Virus record (IMG/VR): IMGVR_UViG_3300023243_000351
Length of the DNA: 64,000 nt
Source of the DNA: a virus
Direction: 5' to 3' (one strand)
Part shown: one piece after another, positions 4,993 to 59,916 of the stretch
Position numbering within the stretch: the first letter of the stretch is position 1
Layout: each line of letters opens with the position of its first letter
The notes under the pieces: generated by a model
What the model saw: only the letters and a program-made list of their open reading frames with translations
The model's database searches: none
Told to the model about the DNA's origin: nothing
Program-made: the position numbers and the translations under genes

Positions 4993-6199
4993 AATGTATT
5001 ACTTTATAGTTGTTGTCTATTTTCGGATATGTTCTCCATGGATCAACTATGATGCTTCCTGTAGCAACATCACAATAGAATTCTTGTCGCTTTTTATTTC
5101 CAGTATATCCATATGTGACTTGTCTGTTGTGCGCCAGGAATGCTATAACAGGTTGGTCGGTATCGGTTGCTATATCGTTAGTAAGCGGATCAACATAAGC
5201 AAAGTCTGTACCTTGTTTTTCCAGGTAATACCCAATCAACAAACTATAACTGCCATCCAGTATATCAACGTCGGGCTTGTATGCTTTGCCCATGATGCGT
5301 ACCGGCATGTTGTTTTTCTTTTGCAGTGCTGTTAGGTAACTGGCAACATTTTCTGCTTGTTTTTCCCTAGCATGCATCACAGTGTCAAATATATCGTATC
5401 CGAGATCTAATCTTTCTGCTAACCAACGCAGTGCAATGTTGTCTCTTGGGTGGCAAGGTCCTGCATCTCCCATGCCTGCTTTCATGTACTTGGGACTTAC
5501 AATACGCAGTGTGCTACCTGCTAATGCTTCTGTAACCACATCAACATCAATGTTACCGTTCTTCACTGCAACATCCTGTATCATGTTTACCAGGCCAATT
5601 TTTGTGCTGATGAATGTGTTGTAAAATATCTTTATGCTTTCTGCTTCATCCCATGTGCCAACATTATACTTGGGATCATTTTCCATTAACGGCTTATAAA
5701 AGTTAATAAGTTCTTTTGCGTCACCTGTTTCTGATCCATCTTCTGTACCAATAATAACCATTTCAGGATTAACCATATCCCATGCAACGCTACCCATAGC
5801 AATAAGGTAGGGGTTGTAAACAAAACGTGCTTCTGACACACAATCACGCAACTGTGTCCTTGTAGTGCCGGGTAATACTGTGCTGATTAGCACTACTAGT
5901 GTTTCCTGTCCAACATGTTGGTTTATGTCTGTTAAAACTTGTTTAACTATAGTATAGTCAAAGTCTTTGTTTGCTAAATGTGTAATAGGTCGACTTCCGT
6001 CGTACACAGGATCGTGTGGAGTTTGCACTGCTACGAATACAATGTCTTTGCCTTTAACTGCACCTTCCAGTGAGGGTGATATTTTTATGGTGTCACTTGT
6101 TTTGTTGTAAATATCGTAGCCAGTCACAGAATACTGTGTGGCCATTGCTTCAGCACATGGAAGCCCTAATTTACCTAACCCTATAAAACCTATTTGCAT
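4964..6199 (-). CDS. UDP-glucose/GDP-mannose dehydrogenase family protein
   Basis: GLGKLG Rossmann motif, VQTP, STVLPGTT, AESIKIFYN, GPCHPRD, AYKPD. Confidence 0.9.
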   Translation of the reverse strand: MQIGFIGLGKLGLPCAEAMATQYSVTGYDIYNKTSDTIKISPSLEGAVKGKDIVFVAVQTPHDPVYDGSRPITHLANKDFDYTIVKQVLTDINQHVGQETLVVLISTVLPGTTRTQLRDCVSEARFVYNPYLIAMGSVAWDMVNPEMVIIGTEDGSETGDAKELINFYKPLMENDPKYNVGTWDEAESIKIFYNTFISTKIGLVNMIQDVAVKNGNIDVDVVTEALAGSTLRIVSPKYMKAGMGDAGPCHPRDNIALRWLAERLDLGYDIFDTVMHAREKQAENVASYLTALQKKNNMPVRIMGKAYKPDVDILDGSYSLLIGYYLEKQGTDFAYVDPLTNDIATDTDQPVIAFLAHNRQVTYGYTGNKKRQEFYCDVATGSIIVDPWRTYPKIDNNYKVIHYGNTRFKTV

Positions 6200-13265: not shown

Positions 13266-13808
13266 TTAAAAGGCAAAACTGGCAACAGGAATTTCAACCT
13301 TCGTAACTGATCCATCTGTTTGCGTTACGTTTAATGTTACTAGGTCGTCGGTCATTTCATAAGCCACTGTATTGCCTAGTAGATCAATAGTACCACTACT
13401 TTGTGGATTTTCCCCAAACAGTTTGTCTGAAATTTGCTTACTAAGTTCAGCATAGATTCTACTTTCTAAATTAGCCAAGAACTTATTAACATTAGAGTTT
13501 TCTTTTTCACGCTCAATTTCTCTTGCCGCGGACTCTAACTTAGATTTGATTTCTGCTCTTCTAGTGTGTGTTAGGTTTTCAATGGTCAACACATGACTAC
13601 TGTAGCCTATACCGTTAAAACTAGGGTTATTAAACTTATAAGTTAAGTCGCCTGCTGTTGCCGCACTGATAAAAAACATGCCCACAAGGAATCCCATAAT
13701 AAAACTCCAAAAGCCAAAACTCAACACTGTTGATATAGTATAGGTTACTGGGTTGGACTTTTTAAACTTCTGCCAGGCTGCCTTTTCATAACTACTTTGA
13801 TGATTCAT
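13266..13808 (-). CDS. csgF: Curli assembly protein CsgF-like
   Basis: After the hydrophobic segment: LTYKFNNPSFNG; F..NLESRIYAELS; C-terminal DGSVTKVEIP; adjacent to csgG. Confidence 0.82.
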   Translation of the reverse strand: MNHQSSYEKAAWQKFKKSNPVTYTISTVLSFGFWSFIMGFLVGMFFISAATAGDLTYKFNNPSFNGIGYSSHVLTIENLTHTRRAEIKSKLESAAREIEREKENSNVNKFLANLESRIYAELSKQISDKLFGENPQSSGTIDLLGNTVAYEMTDDLVTLNVTQTDGSVTKVEIPVASFAF

Positions 13809-14121
13809 TTTTTGTTTTAGCTCCTTGGTCCTTGACCTGTTTTAGTTTTAGTTCTAATTCTTGTGCTTTTTGTAAATTTGCTCTAGCTTTTGCATCTAGT
13901 TCAAGAATCATGTTTAACTTTTGGTTCAGTCTAATTAAATCGTTATCAAGCATACGAATTCTGTCAATCAACGCAATCAGCGTCATTTGTGCTTCGCTTA
14001 GTACAGGATCAATTTCTTTTGTTGCCCAGGTCCATATGTAATATACAAAGTACCCTAACCCACACGCGGCTATAATCGGAAAACCATATTGGTTTATTGC
14101 GCCGGCTACATCAATGTCCAT
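13792..14121 (-). CDS. Small single-TM/coiled-coil protein (paralog of 14138-14419)
   Basis: GFPIIAACGLGYFV; LIDRIRMLDNDLIRL. Confidence 0.7.
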   Translation of the reverse strand: MDIDVAGAINQYGFPIIAACGLGYFVYYIWTWATKEIDPVLSEAQMTLIALIDRIRMLDNDLIRLNQKLNMILELDAKARANLQKAQELELKLKQVKDQGAKTKNESSK

Positions 14122-14419: not shown

Positions 14420-14489
14420 TTTGAATAGCTCCTTCTTTAGTGTATTTACCCAAATTTTTACAGTTTACTCATGGGCTATAAATAATTAC

Positions 14490-23653: not shown

Positions 23654-23883
23654 TACGCTACCTCCACTTTGTATTCAAAAGTATAAATTTCACGCATAAT
23701 CTCGTAAACACGTTCACGGTCTACAGTATCACCACCGCCCCAATTTACTTGGTCTGACATGCGACTAAAGTAAATGTCTACTGCATGGGCTATTTCTTTT
23801 TTAGTAAAGGCCATGTCGTATAAGCCACCCATACCGTAAAAGTCGTTGCAGTAATTTACAAACTCTTTAACTGTTAACTGCAT
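23653..23883 (-). CDS. Hypothetical early protein
   Basis: Start ATG 23883 after SD AAGGAG and an early promoter. Confidence 0.65.
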   Translation of the reverse strand: MQLTVKEFVNYCNDFYGMGGLYDMAFTKKEIAHAVDIYFSRMSDQVNWGGGDTVDRERVYEIMREIYTFEYKVEVA

Positions 23884-23946
23884 CTTTAGCTCCTTATTAG
23901 TTAATATACGTAGTATTATAGATGTTTTTGGACAAACCGTCAACCA
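23884..23946 (-). promoter_or_regulatory. Sigma70-type early promoter, repeated leader module
   Basis: TTGACG (23938-23943), 17-bp spacer, TATAAT (23915-23920), SD AAGGAGCTAA. Confidence 0.85.
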
Positions 23947-24115: not shown

Positions 24116-24184
24116 ATTAGCTCCTCGCTGTTACTAGTTAATATACTTACGTATTATAGAGTCTTTTGGACAAGCCGTCAACCA
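24116..24184 (-). promoter_or_regulatory. Sigma70-type early promoter, repeated leader module
   Basis: TTGACG (24176-24181), 17-bp spacer, TATAAT (24153-24158). Confidence 0.85.
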
Positions 24185-56290: not shown

Positions 56291-57448
56291 CTATTTTCCT
56301 TTGTATGTATTGTACACTTCTGTAGCAAAGAACACAACCTTTTCTGCACGTTGCAACAATAAAGTTTTTTCTGCACCATGCATCATGCCAGCACTGGTTA
56401 CTAACAAAGGAATATCCTGTGGCCAGTGTGAACGATATTTGGTAAAGTACACAACCTTTTTGTCTGTTGTGTCGATAGGTTCATTGTTACGTGGTGCAAA
56501 TAATACCTCATCTTCGTTAAAATAACCTAACACAAACTTATCGCGTAGTCTGTTACTAAGGTCTGGTTCGTATACATAAACTGGTAATCTTTCTGTAACC
56601 TGTGCATAGACAAATAGTGCATCCAGCACTTCTTTGTTGGCATCTGGGTTGTAGTTTACATGATTACCTTTTAGTAGGTTAAACAAGCGTGTGCTTTCAA
56701 ACTTTTTCAAGAACAAGTCTTCAACTTGCTGACTCACTAAGAAATAGCACACACCAGCCAGATCGATAACTTTTATTAAGTTGTTGATAGTTATGTCTCC
56801 TGCTTTCTTGGTCACAAATTCTAACAGCGATGCAGGGGCATTACGAATAACCAACTGAGTGTCCACAACATCCAACTGTACGTGTTGTGGTTTAGTCTGC
56901 GTTATCTTTTTCTCAATATCAAACAGTTGTGAGTCAATTTCAAAATCATGATGCCTCGCAATAAACATTGTAGCGGCTAAGTTGGGCTCTGTTAGTGCTA
57001 TGCGCCACTGTTTGGTTTCTTCATTATGAAAACGCCAACTACCGCAACTGATCTTAGTAGCATCTCTAACCATGTCAACAATCTTAGGTTCAAAAGAAAA
57101 CTGTAGTACTATTTGGTCTTGCTCTAGCCACATCATTCGTCTGCGATCAATTGTACGCAAAGGCTTTCTGTACTGGGGATTTTCAACAGGAGCAACGTCT
57201 ACTCTTTTTGCCTCCAATTGTCGTTTGTATTTTAAAATCAGTTTGCAAGCCAGTTCGGCCTGCTTGTCTGTTAACCCTTGTCCCCCGCGGACACTTGTGG
57301 CCATGCTGTTAATTACTCTAACATCATACCTAGCCAAACTGATTATGGGCTCTATCTTCCCGAACATACCGTAGTACTTGTTGGTTACCGGATCCCTGTC
57401 ACCATTTATAATTTCTAAGTAATCTTCAACGTAGGTAAATTTTTGCAT
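56291..57448 (-). CDS. Hypothetical protein
   Basis: 385-aa ORF; TTGACT-16-TATACT promoter upstream. Confidence 0.6.
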   Translation of the reverse strand: MQKFTYVEDYLEIINGDRDPVTNKYYGMFGKIEPIISLARYDVRVINSMATSVRGGQGLTDKQAELACKLILKYKRQLEAKRVDVAPVENPQYRKPLRTIDRRRMMWLEQDQIVLQFSFEPKIVDMVRDATKISCGSWRFHNEETKQWRIALTEPNLAATMFIARHHDFEIDSQLFDIEKKITQTKPQHVQLDVVDTQLVIRNAPASLLEFVTKKAGDITINNLIKVIDLAGVCYFLVSQQVEDLFLKKFESTRLFNLLKGNHVNYNPDANKEVLDALFVYAQVTERLPVYVYEPDLSNRLRDKFVLGYFNEDEVLFAPRNNEPIDTTDKKVVYFTKYRSHWPQDIPLLVTSAGMMHGAEKTLLLQRAEKVVFFATEVYNTYKGK

Positions 57449-57484
57449 GTTAGATATAAGTATACACTAGTATTAGAAGAAGTC

Positions 57485-57521
57485 AAAAAAAGACCTACCG
57501 GATTATTACATCCGATAGGCC
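57485..57521 (-). terminator. Intrinsic terminator of the early AAA-ATPase operon
   Basis: GGCCUAUCGGAU-GUAAUA-AUCCGGUAGGUC plus U7; G-U pairs only work on the minus strand. Confidence 0.85.
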
Positions 57522-57571
57522 CAAGGGAACCGACATAAAAGGAGCTAACAAAAATGTCGGTTTACTGCTCG
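57485..57571 (-). ncRNA. Candidate 3'-UTR small RNA with anti-Shine-Dalgarno loop
   Basis: 9-bp stem AACCGACAU/AUGUCGGUU around loop UUUUGUUAGCUCCUUUU, followed by a terminator. Confidence 0.45.
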
Positions 57572-58609
57572 TTAAGCACTCTTCATACAAGTTGACTCTG
57601 TCATTGCTTTCCAGTTACCCGGGAAGCTCTTGTATAATTGTGCAATCTTAATCGCCATACGCAAACTCATTTCACGTAATCTGCTCTTGTTAGTATCCAT
57701 AAACTCAATAATATCATCTTGTCCACATTGTTCAATATCCATCTCAGCAAACAATGCACCACTCTTAGCAATCTGTTTGATACGCAATATTTTATCACGC
57801 ATACTGTCCAGTGTAAGATCCAAGTAGTGACATCGTGACTGCAATGCATCCAAGTGATCACGTAGTTTCTGTGAGCGTACCTTGTCAAACTTCAAATTGG
57901 TGATAAAAATCACACTGCCTTTGAAATAGAACGAGTCGGGTATGCCTTCGCTACGCAATACTCTGGATTCTGCTAACCAACTTATCTTGCGTTTCTTACC
58001 TGAGTCCAACGCACCCTTGAGCAAGTTAAGAGAAACGTCATCCAGTAGGATTGAGTCACAGTCATCAAACACAACCAAACAGTTCTTATCCGAATACTTG
58101 TAAAGTGTTTGGTATAAGCCAATTGGTGTTGCGGCACCTTTAACCACTTCTGCTCGTAGCCTGCGTCCTGCAATCTGATCAAACAGTGTAGCCTTTTCAA
58201 TCTCTTTCTCCACACCGTAACTCTTACCAACTCCTGGAGGGCCGCTAACGATCATTGCTGTAATCTCGTTTTGTGTTGCGGCTTTGGTCATGTCCTCTAG
58301 TATTTGAAAACGCTGAGCAATCTGTTCAATACGTTCTGCGTCACCTACATTAGCATTTGGATCTGCTTCAGCCTGTGTAACCAATTGCTGTACTGCTGTG
58401 TCTGAGTCAGTTGTGAACTCGTAGTCAGCCACACTGCTTAATTTAATACGAAGTTTTTCTGGGCACCCAGGAAACTGGTTACCATTTTCTACTGTTACGA
58501 ATCCACCGTTGGTGCCAGGTTGGAACTGTTTTACTAGTTGGAAGGTCTTTCCACTGACATCCATATTGCGATATGAACCGTTTTTAATTTTTATATACGC
58601 TGTAGACAT
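57572..58609 (-). CDS. AAA+-type ATPase
   Basis: GPPGVGKS, VFDDCD, FITN, ALQSR. Confidence 0.85.
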   Translation of the reverse strand: MSTAYIKIKNGSYRNMDVSGKTFQLVKQFQPGTNGGFVTVENGNQFPGCPEKLRIKLSSVADYEFTTDSDTAVQQLVTQAEADPNANVGDAERIEQIAQRFQILEDMTKAATQNEITAMIVSGPPGVGKSYGVEKEIEKATLFDQIAGRRLRAEVVKGAATPIGLYQTLYKYSDKNCLVVFDDCDSILLDDVSLNLLKGALDSGKKRKISWLAESRVLRSEGIPDSFYFKGSVIFITNLKFDKVRSQKLRDHLDALQSRCHYLDLTLDSMRDKILRIKQIAKSGALFAEMDIEQCGQDDIIEFMDTNKSRLREMSLRMAIKIAQLYKSFPGNWKAMTESTCMKSA

Positions 58610-58663
58610 ATATTGCTCCTTTGAAAATTATAAAATTAACAGTTGTTTTCTTATTATATGTGT

Positions 58664-58692
58664 ATTATAGACTCGTTTGGTCCTTCTGTCAA
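58664..58692 (-). promoter_or_regulatory. Consensus sigma70 early promoter
   Basis: TTGACA (58687-58692), 17-bp spacer, TATAAT (58664-58669). Confidence 0.85.
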
Positions 58693-59405: not shown

Positions 59406-59472
59406 TTTGTTTAGCTCCTTACTAGTTAATATACTTACGTATTATAGACGATTTTGGACAACAAGTCAACCA
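59406..59472 (-). promoter_or_regulatory. Sigma70-type early promoter, repeated leader module
   Basis: TTGACT (59464-59469), 17-bp spacer, TATAAT (59441-59446). Confidence 0.85.
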
Positions 59473-59840: not shown

Positions 59841-59916
59841 TTTTAGCTCCTTATTAGTATTATTAATAACTGTACTACAAGTGCTATTATAGGCTATTTT
59901 GGACAAACCGTCAACC
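59841..59916 (-). promoter_or_regulatory. Sigma70-type early promoter, repeated leader module
   Basis: TTGACG (59909-59914), 17-bp spacer, TATAAT (59886-59891). Confidence 0.85.

Follow-up and report, generated by a model that had tools for sequence, protein, structure and literature searches.

Why would a phage place, between the end of an ATPase gene and the terminator behind it, a hairpin whose loop is complementary to ribosome-binding sites? The question is raised by positions 57485-57571 of the window, by which we mean the whole stretch of 64,000 nucleotides analysed here; it comes from an uncultured T4-like giant phage, with 40% G+C and ORFs nearly all on the minus strand, and a megablast search gave no DNA-level match to it among cultured phages. 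From the comparisons described below, we consider it probable that the 3' UTR carries an anti-Shine-Dalgarno (anti-SD) element that pairs with the SD sequence of its own transcription unit, and with those of sister early leaders, thereby lowering early translation.

The hairpin, its terminator and the ATPase transcription unit

The last cistron before the hairpin is an AAA ATPase gene (57572-58609, minus strand; 345 aa; stop codon TAA at 57574-57572), a member of phrog_1250 and a homologue of T4 NrdC.10, with about 30% identity to the T4 protein and 40% to a PA5oct protein. The family has no assigned function, its AAA and DnaC-like similarity is weak, and the protein is distinct from the clamp loader. 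On the 3' side of the stop codon stands the anti-SD hairpin (57528-57562, minus strand), with a perfect 9-bp stem (57562-57554 with 57536-57528) and a 17-nt loop, UUUUGUUAGCUCCUUUU (57537-57553), the core of which, UUAGCUCCUU (57548-57539), is complementary to AAGGAGCUAA. After a gap of 5 nt follows a terminator (57485-57522, minus strand), in which a 13-pair stem (57522-57491) with six G-C pairs runs into seven U (57491-57485), the make-up of an intrinsic terminator; the hairpin is placed behind the last cistron, with a terminator common to the operon and to itself. RNA folding of 57449-57580 (minus strand) returns exactly two hairpins, with a minimum free energy of -37.1 kcal/mol (z = -4.3) that none of 200 shuffles equalled, in agreement with the stem and exposed loop that a preliminary description of this DNA had placed between the ATPase stop and the terminator, and which are present exactly as it claimed. 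A search of the hairpin region against Rfam gave sub-threshold matches only, the best being SdsR_RyeB (RF00111) at 57485-57571 (minus strand; 22.9 bits against a gathering score of 38, E = 0.078 on 451 nt). The element and this family are alike in size and in the layout of a hairpin plus a terminator, but with a score below the threshold we rejected membership.

The ATPase gene has its own early-type promoter (58664-58692, minus strand; 12 of 12 consensus positions) and an SD, AAAGGAGC (58615-58622), that matches the loop over 8 nt with a predicted duplex of -13.0 kcal/mol. Further upstream on the same strand, a 77-aa gene (start 59405) with the SD AAGGAGCUAA at 59411-59420 is the first cistron behind a promoter at 59469-59441, and a 109-aa gene (start 59840) with the same SD at 59843-59852 is the first cistron behind a promoter at 59914-59886. 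Three strong sigma-70-type minus-strand promoters (59914, 59469 and 58692) are thus followed by one minus-strand terminator behind the hairpin, the sole minus-strand terminator detected within 60100-57000, so that three nested early transcripts are predicted to end in one shared 3' UTR with the hairpin inside it. The signals of three promoters and one terminator, with none between, agree with an anti-SD motif and partners on a single transcript, the arrangement that icaR has (see below).

Past the terminator, the next gene (56291-57448, minus strand; 385 aa, without a family match) has a promoter, TTGACT-16-TATACT (57459-57486, minus strand), whose -35 element overlaps the U-run of the terminator, and this terminator-promoter module is conserved in relatives. 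The ATG of this gene lies 6-10 nt past the -10 element (10 nt in the window, 57448-57486; the same place in L003-L027 of the loci introduced below) and has no SD; the short distance and the missing SD together suggest a leaderless or near-leaderless mRNA.

Conservation of the hairpin and its co-variation with the SD sequence

A relative of the ATPase is encoded by 598 IMG/VR stretches, of which we examined the best 80 (64-87% identity) plus two closer relatives retrieved via the 77-aa gene, 82 loci in total. In each of these loci the ATPase gene is preceded by a TTGAC-N17-TATAAT promoter of its own with a short leader. The relatives combine this promoter, the SD, the gene, the hairpin and the terminator in one unit, and the ATPase gene points the same way throughout. 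Just before the terminator that closes this unit, we find about 50 distinct versions of the hairpin across the 82 loci. The loop core (U/G)AGCUCC is retained across the relatives, and both UAGCUCCU and the TAGCTCCT of the loop are invariant in a 22-sequence alignment (A1). The stems have no sequence kinship between clades, and their pairing is perfect, for example AACCGACAU/AUGUCGGUU, GCCGAUAU/AUAUCGGC, CCAUAACUC/GAGUUAUGG and CCCGGGG/CCCCGGG. Within the close clade, both sides have changed in 6 of the 9 stem pairs while 91.7% of the cells remain paired, a level reached by none of 500 shuffles and by no slid register; this column-based count concerns the close clade only, as MAFFT misregisters the stems of the other clades, whose loop lengths differ. 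A covariance model trained on the close clade (R1) detects the element once in each locus and once in the window (58.4 bits); its reach does not extend to the more distant loop classes. Hairpin and terminator remain together both where the ATPase gene ends the unit and where a small hydrophobic ORF or as much as about 3.5 kb of other genes comes after it, and also where a different gene lies beyond the terminator. Loop conservation and stem covariation, the two features that the preliminary description had proposed to look for in relatives, are both found, and they support the view that this is a real, conserved element acting at the RNA level in the 3' UTR.

The hairpin was not seen at several loci within the retrieved stretches, and one locus, L075, has lost the anti-SD loop. 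There the hairpin (approximately 5830-5900) is a short stem without this loop, and the ATPase SD, CGGAGCUAGUAAAU, is the same as in the sister locus L069 (5615-5646); by its sequence, L075 is a natural loss variant of the anti-SD loop. The 3' region of T4 nrdC.10 has no comparable anti-SD hairpin, and the PA5oct homologue has no comparable anti-SD loop, and for this reason no cultured model phage with the element was found.

In most clades the ATPase gene opens the unit, and its SD is complementary to the loop of the same phage; the two switch together. The co-switching classes, given as SD/loop, are GGAGCUAA/UUAGCUCC, GGAGCUAG/CUAGCUCC, GGAGCCAAC/GUUGGCUCC, AAGGAGCCA/UGGCUCCUU, CGGAGCAA/UUGCUCCG and GGAGCAA/UUGCUCC, and one locus combines GGAGC-C-UAGACAA with UUGUCUAGCUCC, over 12 bp with one bulge. 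A C follows the GGAG of the ATPase SD in 53 of 57 unique contexts, compared with 78 of 256 other SDs of the same loci. Past the GGAGC/GCUCC core, Watson-Crick pairing extends on average by 2.0 bp when SD and loop come from one phage and by 0.99 bp in cross-phage pairs, the former value being reached by none of 20,000 loop permutations, in counts that ignore phylogeny. When the whole site is taken, the ATPase initiation region and the loop of the same phage share a longest Watson-Crick match of 8.4 nt on average (7-11 nt for 51 of the 52 unique relatives), compared with means of 5.0 nt for the other SD-bearing starts of the loci and 7.2 nt for cross-phage pairs; none of 5000 permutations reaches the own value, phylogeny being ignored here as well. 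An RNAduplex comparison of ATPase initiation regions with 110-nt 3' segments gave a weak excess, with -15.0 kcal/mol for own and -14.3 kcal/mol for cross pairs (103 of 5000 permutations); these segments included terminators and hairpin-less loci, and the comparison was replaced by the anchored and loop-only tests. In a quick ATPase tree the A/G-U/C switches recur and the UA-type pairs are nested inside the CCAAC-type clade, and this nesting suggests, as far as a quick tree can tell, that SD and loop switched jointly more than once. At least five classes in which SD and loop co-vary naturally, in counts that ignore phylogeny, support the base pairing by compensatory change, as expected of an icaR-type contact; they are the natural equivalent of the compensatory-mutation experiment that had been proposed together with the claim that the loop is complementary to an extended SD.

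The clade of the window itself (L001-L018, L021, L027 and the window) has the loop UUUUUG(U/A)UAGCUCCUUUU, which the ATPase SD matches over (A)AAGGAGC(U) only, that is 7-8 nt, and the SD positions past GGAGC do not track the loop. Because the ATPase SD pairs only through GGAGC(U), the conserved UAG in the loop of this clade is not explained by pairing there, and the contigs of five relatives of the clade (15-68 kb) contained no better SD partner. In the window and its two closest relatives with upstream sequence (L087 and L088), small genes stand upstream of the ATPase gene. Both L087 and L088 keep the hairpin and have AAGGAGCUA(A) on the first cistron behind the upstream promoter; since the first cistron carries this sequence in these two and in the window, the rule that the first SD of the unit matches the hairpin at its end still holds there.

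Proposed self-regulation, sister leaders and competing readings

Across the family the loop is predicted to pair with the SD that opens its own unit, in most cases that of the ATPase gene, and this points to self-regulation as the core logic of the element rather than primarily to a genome-wide trans regulon. As with OppZ and CarZ, the complementarity falls within the own operon, over 10 nt at the 59405 and 59840 genes and 8 nt at the ATPase gene (7-11 nt in relatives), and the element lies at the 3' end with the operon terminator, a position that is the same in relatives. We propose that nested early transcripts would start at the promoters 59914, 59469 and 58692 and all end at the terminator 57522-57485, that the stem would present the loop single-stranded, and that the loop would pair with the SDs of the first cistrons (AAGGAGCUAA for 59405 and for 59840, AAAGGAGC for the ATPase). 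Such pairing would occlude the ribosome-binding site and lead to less translation of the early genes. It might come about by 5'-3' contact within one mRNA, as in icaR, or through an accumulated hairpin-terminator fragment acting as a 3'-UTR-derived RNA, as for OppZ/CarZ. The course of the transcripts from the early promoters to the terminator, the repression by pairing and its mode, in cis or in trans, we infer.

Elsewhere in the window the loop has further potential partners. The window contains five copies of AAGGAGCTAA, where 0.12 would be expected and none of 100 shuffles reaches five. Four of them, all on the minus strand, stand shortly before the starts 13808, 23883, 59405 and 59840; the hairpin loop itself accounts for the fifth (plus strand, 57539-57548), and one-mismatch copies precede the starts 14419 and 24115. 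The preliminary description had named an exact complement of the loop before 23883, 59405, 59840 and csgF, 9-nt matches before 24115 and 14419, and pairing of 16 of 18 nt across the SD and AUG of the 59405 gene; the five copies confirm the first statement, the one-mismatch copies bear out the second, and the third is correct, with a duplex of -17.7 kcal/mol. Its csgF assignment also stands, the ORF downstream of 13817 (13266-13808, minus strand) being CsgF-like (Pfam PF10614, E = 2e-18). Components of curli secretion are unusual in a phage, and the CsgF-like protein here is phage-encoded.

The loop complements AAGGAGCUAA, the SD of four early-promoter cassettes and of two other genes. All four extended GTCCAAAA...TCTATAAT promoters found window-wide (59914, 59469, 24181 and 23943) precede (A/G)AGGAGCUAA, which defines a small set of early leaders with a common SD, and three of the four also have the leader motif UAUAUUAACUA in common. 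Two members of this set lie outside the ATPase unit, a small early gene (start 23883) with the SD AAGGAGCUAA at 23886-23895 behind the promoter 23943-23915, and another (start 24115) with GAGGAGCUAA at 24117-24126 behind the promoter 24181-24153, both on the minus strand and both candidate trans sites. With these sister leaders, some trans action is plausible in the phage of the window, where the hairpin RNA would also reach the leaders at 23883 and 24115. Possible trans sites are also the SD AAGGAGCUAU (14425-14434, minus strand) of a 93-aa gene (start 14419) and, as the weakest case, the SD AAGGAGCUAA (13817-13826, minus strand) of the CsgF-like gene, which has no promoter in front. The six best predicted sense-strand partners of the loop in the window are all ribosome-binding sites with GGAGCUA, from -14.7 to -17.9 kcal/mol, the 59405, 24115, 13808 and 14419 sites at about -17 to -18 kcal/mol and the 59840 and 23883 sites at -14.7 kcal/mol. 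A window-wide duplex scan at -10.5 kcal/mol gave 139 sites, compared with 47-191 for shuffled loops, and hence no excess; below the top six sites, which alone carry weight, predicted partners of the loop are no more numerous than those of shuffled loops, and CUCC-containing loops in general match strong SDs. Without an early promoter, and with the excess of sites vanishing at lower stringency, the CsgF-like and 14419 genes are the weaker candidates.

These sites bear directly on the reading favoured in the preliminary description, a discrete trans-acting sRNA of about 90 nt, made of hairpin and terminator, that silences a AAGGAGCUAA regulon including the curli-like genes as an early shut-off. 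It would account for the six window starts with GGAGCUA being the top predicted partners and for all four GTCCAAAA-type early promoters preceding that SD, and the layout is like that of 3'-UTR-derived sRNAs, to which the weak, sub-threshold SdsR/RyeB similarity (22.9 bits) may be added. We nevertheless think such a regulon unlikely to be the main role of the element: the partner conserved in the family is the first SD of the own unit and not a dispersed set, the sense-strand AGGAGCUA is absent in four of five relatives' contigs (15-68 kb) and present as a single copy in the fifth, the 13808 and 14419 sites have no early promoter, and neither a separate promoter nor a processing site was identified. 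The SD common to a small early-leader set stands; the dispersed regulon gives way to the first SD of the own unit as the partner in the family.

The conserved UAG in the loop of the window's clade, to which the ATPase SD offers no pairing, would fit a reading of the hairpin instead as a stability or termination element, or a site for an RNA-binding protein of phage or host, with the SD complementarity incidental to a pyrimidine-rich conserved loop. The position directly before the terminator, and a conserved loop on variable stems, typical of protein-binding hairpins, fit this reading equally. A protein site, however, gives no reason for the first-cistron SD to follow the loop through at least five sequence classes, and it leaves the near-universal GGAGC at the ATPase SD (53/57 versus 78/256) unexplained; we hold it to be improbable.

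The repeated early promoter-leader cassettes of the window, and a similarity that there extends to the ATG (16 of 18 nt), could also be read at the DNA level, as a short inverted repeat flanking the ATPase cassette that arose from, or serves, recombination or shuffling of early promoter-leader cassettes, its copies staying alike through gene conversion. The repeats comprise only 7-12 bp without flanking similarity, too short for conversion, the ATPase gene never changes its orientation among the loci, and the 3' copy is always in the loop of a hairpin with a covarying stem, which indicates selection on single-stranded RNA; with repeats this short and a stem that covaries, we rejected this very improbable explanation. 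The other alternative of the preliminary description, a plus-strand ribosome-binding site with a sequestered ATG for a 13-codon ORF running antisense to the ATPase 3' end, has next to no probability left and is refuted, for although the plus-strand AAGGAGCTAACAAAAATG resembles the phage's own initiation regions, the ATG falls in the variable stem and is not conserved, being missing in most relatives (absent in L001 and all other clades, which have ATA, ACC, ACT and others), and the window contains no plus-strand promoter of the phage's type, nor the region any other plus-strand gene.

Relation to known regulators and minor features of the relatives

Post-transcriptional control in virulent phages is known mostly through proteins, for example RegA and RegB, and T4 RegA shuts down early phage mRNAs post-transcriptionally at their initiation regions; RegA is a protein repressor, whereas the candidate repressor of the window would be an RNA. 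To our knowledge, phage-encoded regulatory RNAs are few and mostly without targets, and our limited literature search found no phage description of an element such as this one. The C4 antisense RNA covers the ribosome-binding site of icd, and it is cut out of the 5' portion of its transcript. It is known from the c4-icd-ant operon of phages P1 and P7 (Citron and Schuster 1990, via PMC8198154) and resembles our element in that one phage operon encodes both the antisense RNA and its target. Within a temperate immunity circuit, C4 stands upstream of that target, whereas the window element is 3' in a lytic early unit, and the two have no sequence relation.

The closest parallels are bacterial. In icaR, a 3'-UTR anti-SD motif faces a complementary SD within its own transcription unit (PMC3868564, 2013), and the two cases share this complementarity, with blocked initiation as the expected result. 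Unlike icaR, the window element is phage-borne, carries its motif on a dedicated hairpin loop beside the terminator, is conserved in a family with a co-varying SD and belongs to a polycistronic unit with nested promoters; no sequence relation connects the two. OppZ and CarZ of Vibrio cholerae are autoregulatory sRNAs that arise by processing of the 3' UTR of the operon encoding them (Hoyos et al. 2020, PMC7398697), and the likeness comprises a regulator at the 3' end of the operon, a shared terminator, complementarity to an initiation region of the own operon and negative feedback. They involve RNase E processing, Hfq dependence and Rho-dependent termination; the window element differs in being viral and in targeting the SD core itself, usually that of the first cistron. 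The element would act like known bacterial 3'-UTR regulators without being related to them in sequence.

If this is confirmed, the principle of bacterial 3'-UTR autoregulation seen in icaR and OppZ/CarZ would extend to viruses, short and naturally diversified SD/anti-SD pairs would become available that are directly testable in reporters, and the NrdC.10-like ATPase, widespread and of unknown function, would be marked as dose-sensitive. Here comparative analysis by itself has pointed out a conserved RNA element in phages and a likely target for it, with natural compensatory changes supporting the pairing, and the element, which is not in Rfam, is spread over hundreds of uncultured giant-phage contigs, considering the 598 ATPase relatives and the 82 loci examined. 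A bolder possibility, which we offer tentatively and regard as rather doubtful, is an early shut-off made of RNA only, in which lineage-private SD extensions (GGAGCUAA, GGAGCCAAC, GGAGCAA and others) and the matching 3' anti-SD hairpin would time the early-to-middle switch. With early transcripts building up, or decaying to stable 3' ends, the hairpin would then titrate exactly these leaders. Such a system, if true, would do with RNA what RegA does in T4, and its specificity, co-evolving in each lineage, would in principle be orthogonal.

Several minor features accompany the hairpin in relatives. A recurrent (A)AGUUU(U)AC stands 5-15 nt upstream of the hairpin (for example in L006, L007, L050, L054, L063, L073 and L078; the window is without it); it resembles the RNase E preference, RN|WUU, and could be a processing site that frees the hairpin-terminator fragment. 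In L044 and L045 (5032-5075) the anti-SD tract lies either in the loop of a 6-bp hairpin or single-stranded beside a mutually exclusive alternative 8-bp hairpin, and these alternatives may form a structural switch. In L090 (Pseudomonas phage PA5oct), a small hairpin 3' of the gene (1865-1890) has a 3' arm, UGCUACUU, complementary to AGUAGCA, the 7 nt between the SD and the AUG of the gene (685-700), a complementarity that may be due to chance.

Two further features are absent from the window. One, seen directly past the ATPase stop in L006-L008, L019, L020, L023, L049, L050, L073, L078 and L079, encodes a hydrophobic peptide of about 30 aa (M-x-W-L...G-H-P...L-L); this tiny ORF overlaps or abuts that stop and precedes the hairpin. 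The other is a second conserved hairpin just past the ATPase stop (L002:5029-5090, L013:5023-5120, L019 at about 5400-5480, L022:5029-5080, L040:3160-3200, L041 and L077:5020-5080), with a near-invariant loop, GCAAUGUCAAUAAGUCC, and flanking arms that covary as AGG/CCU, GGGG/CCCC and AAGG/CCUU.
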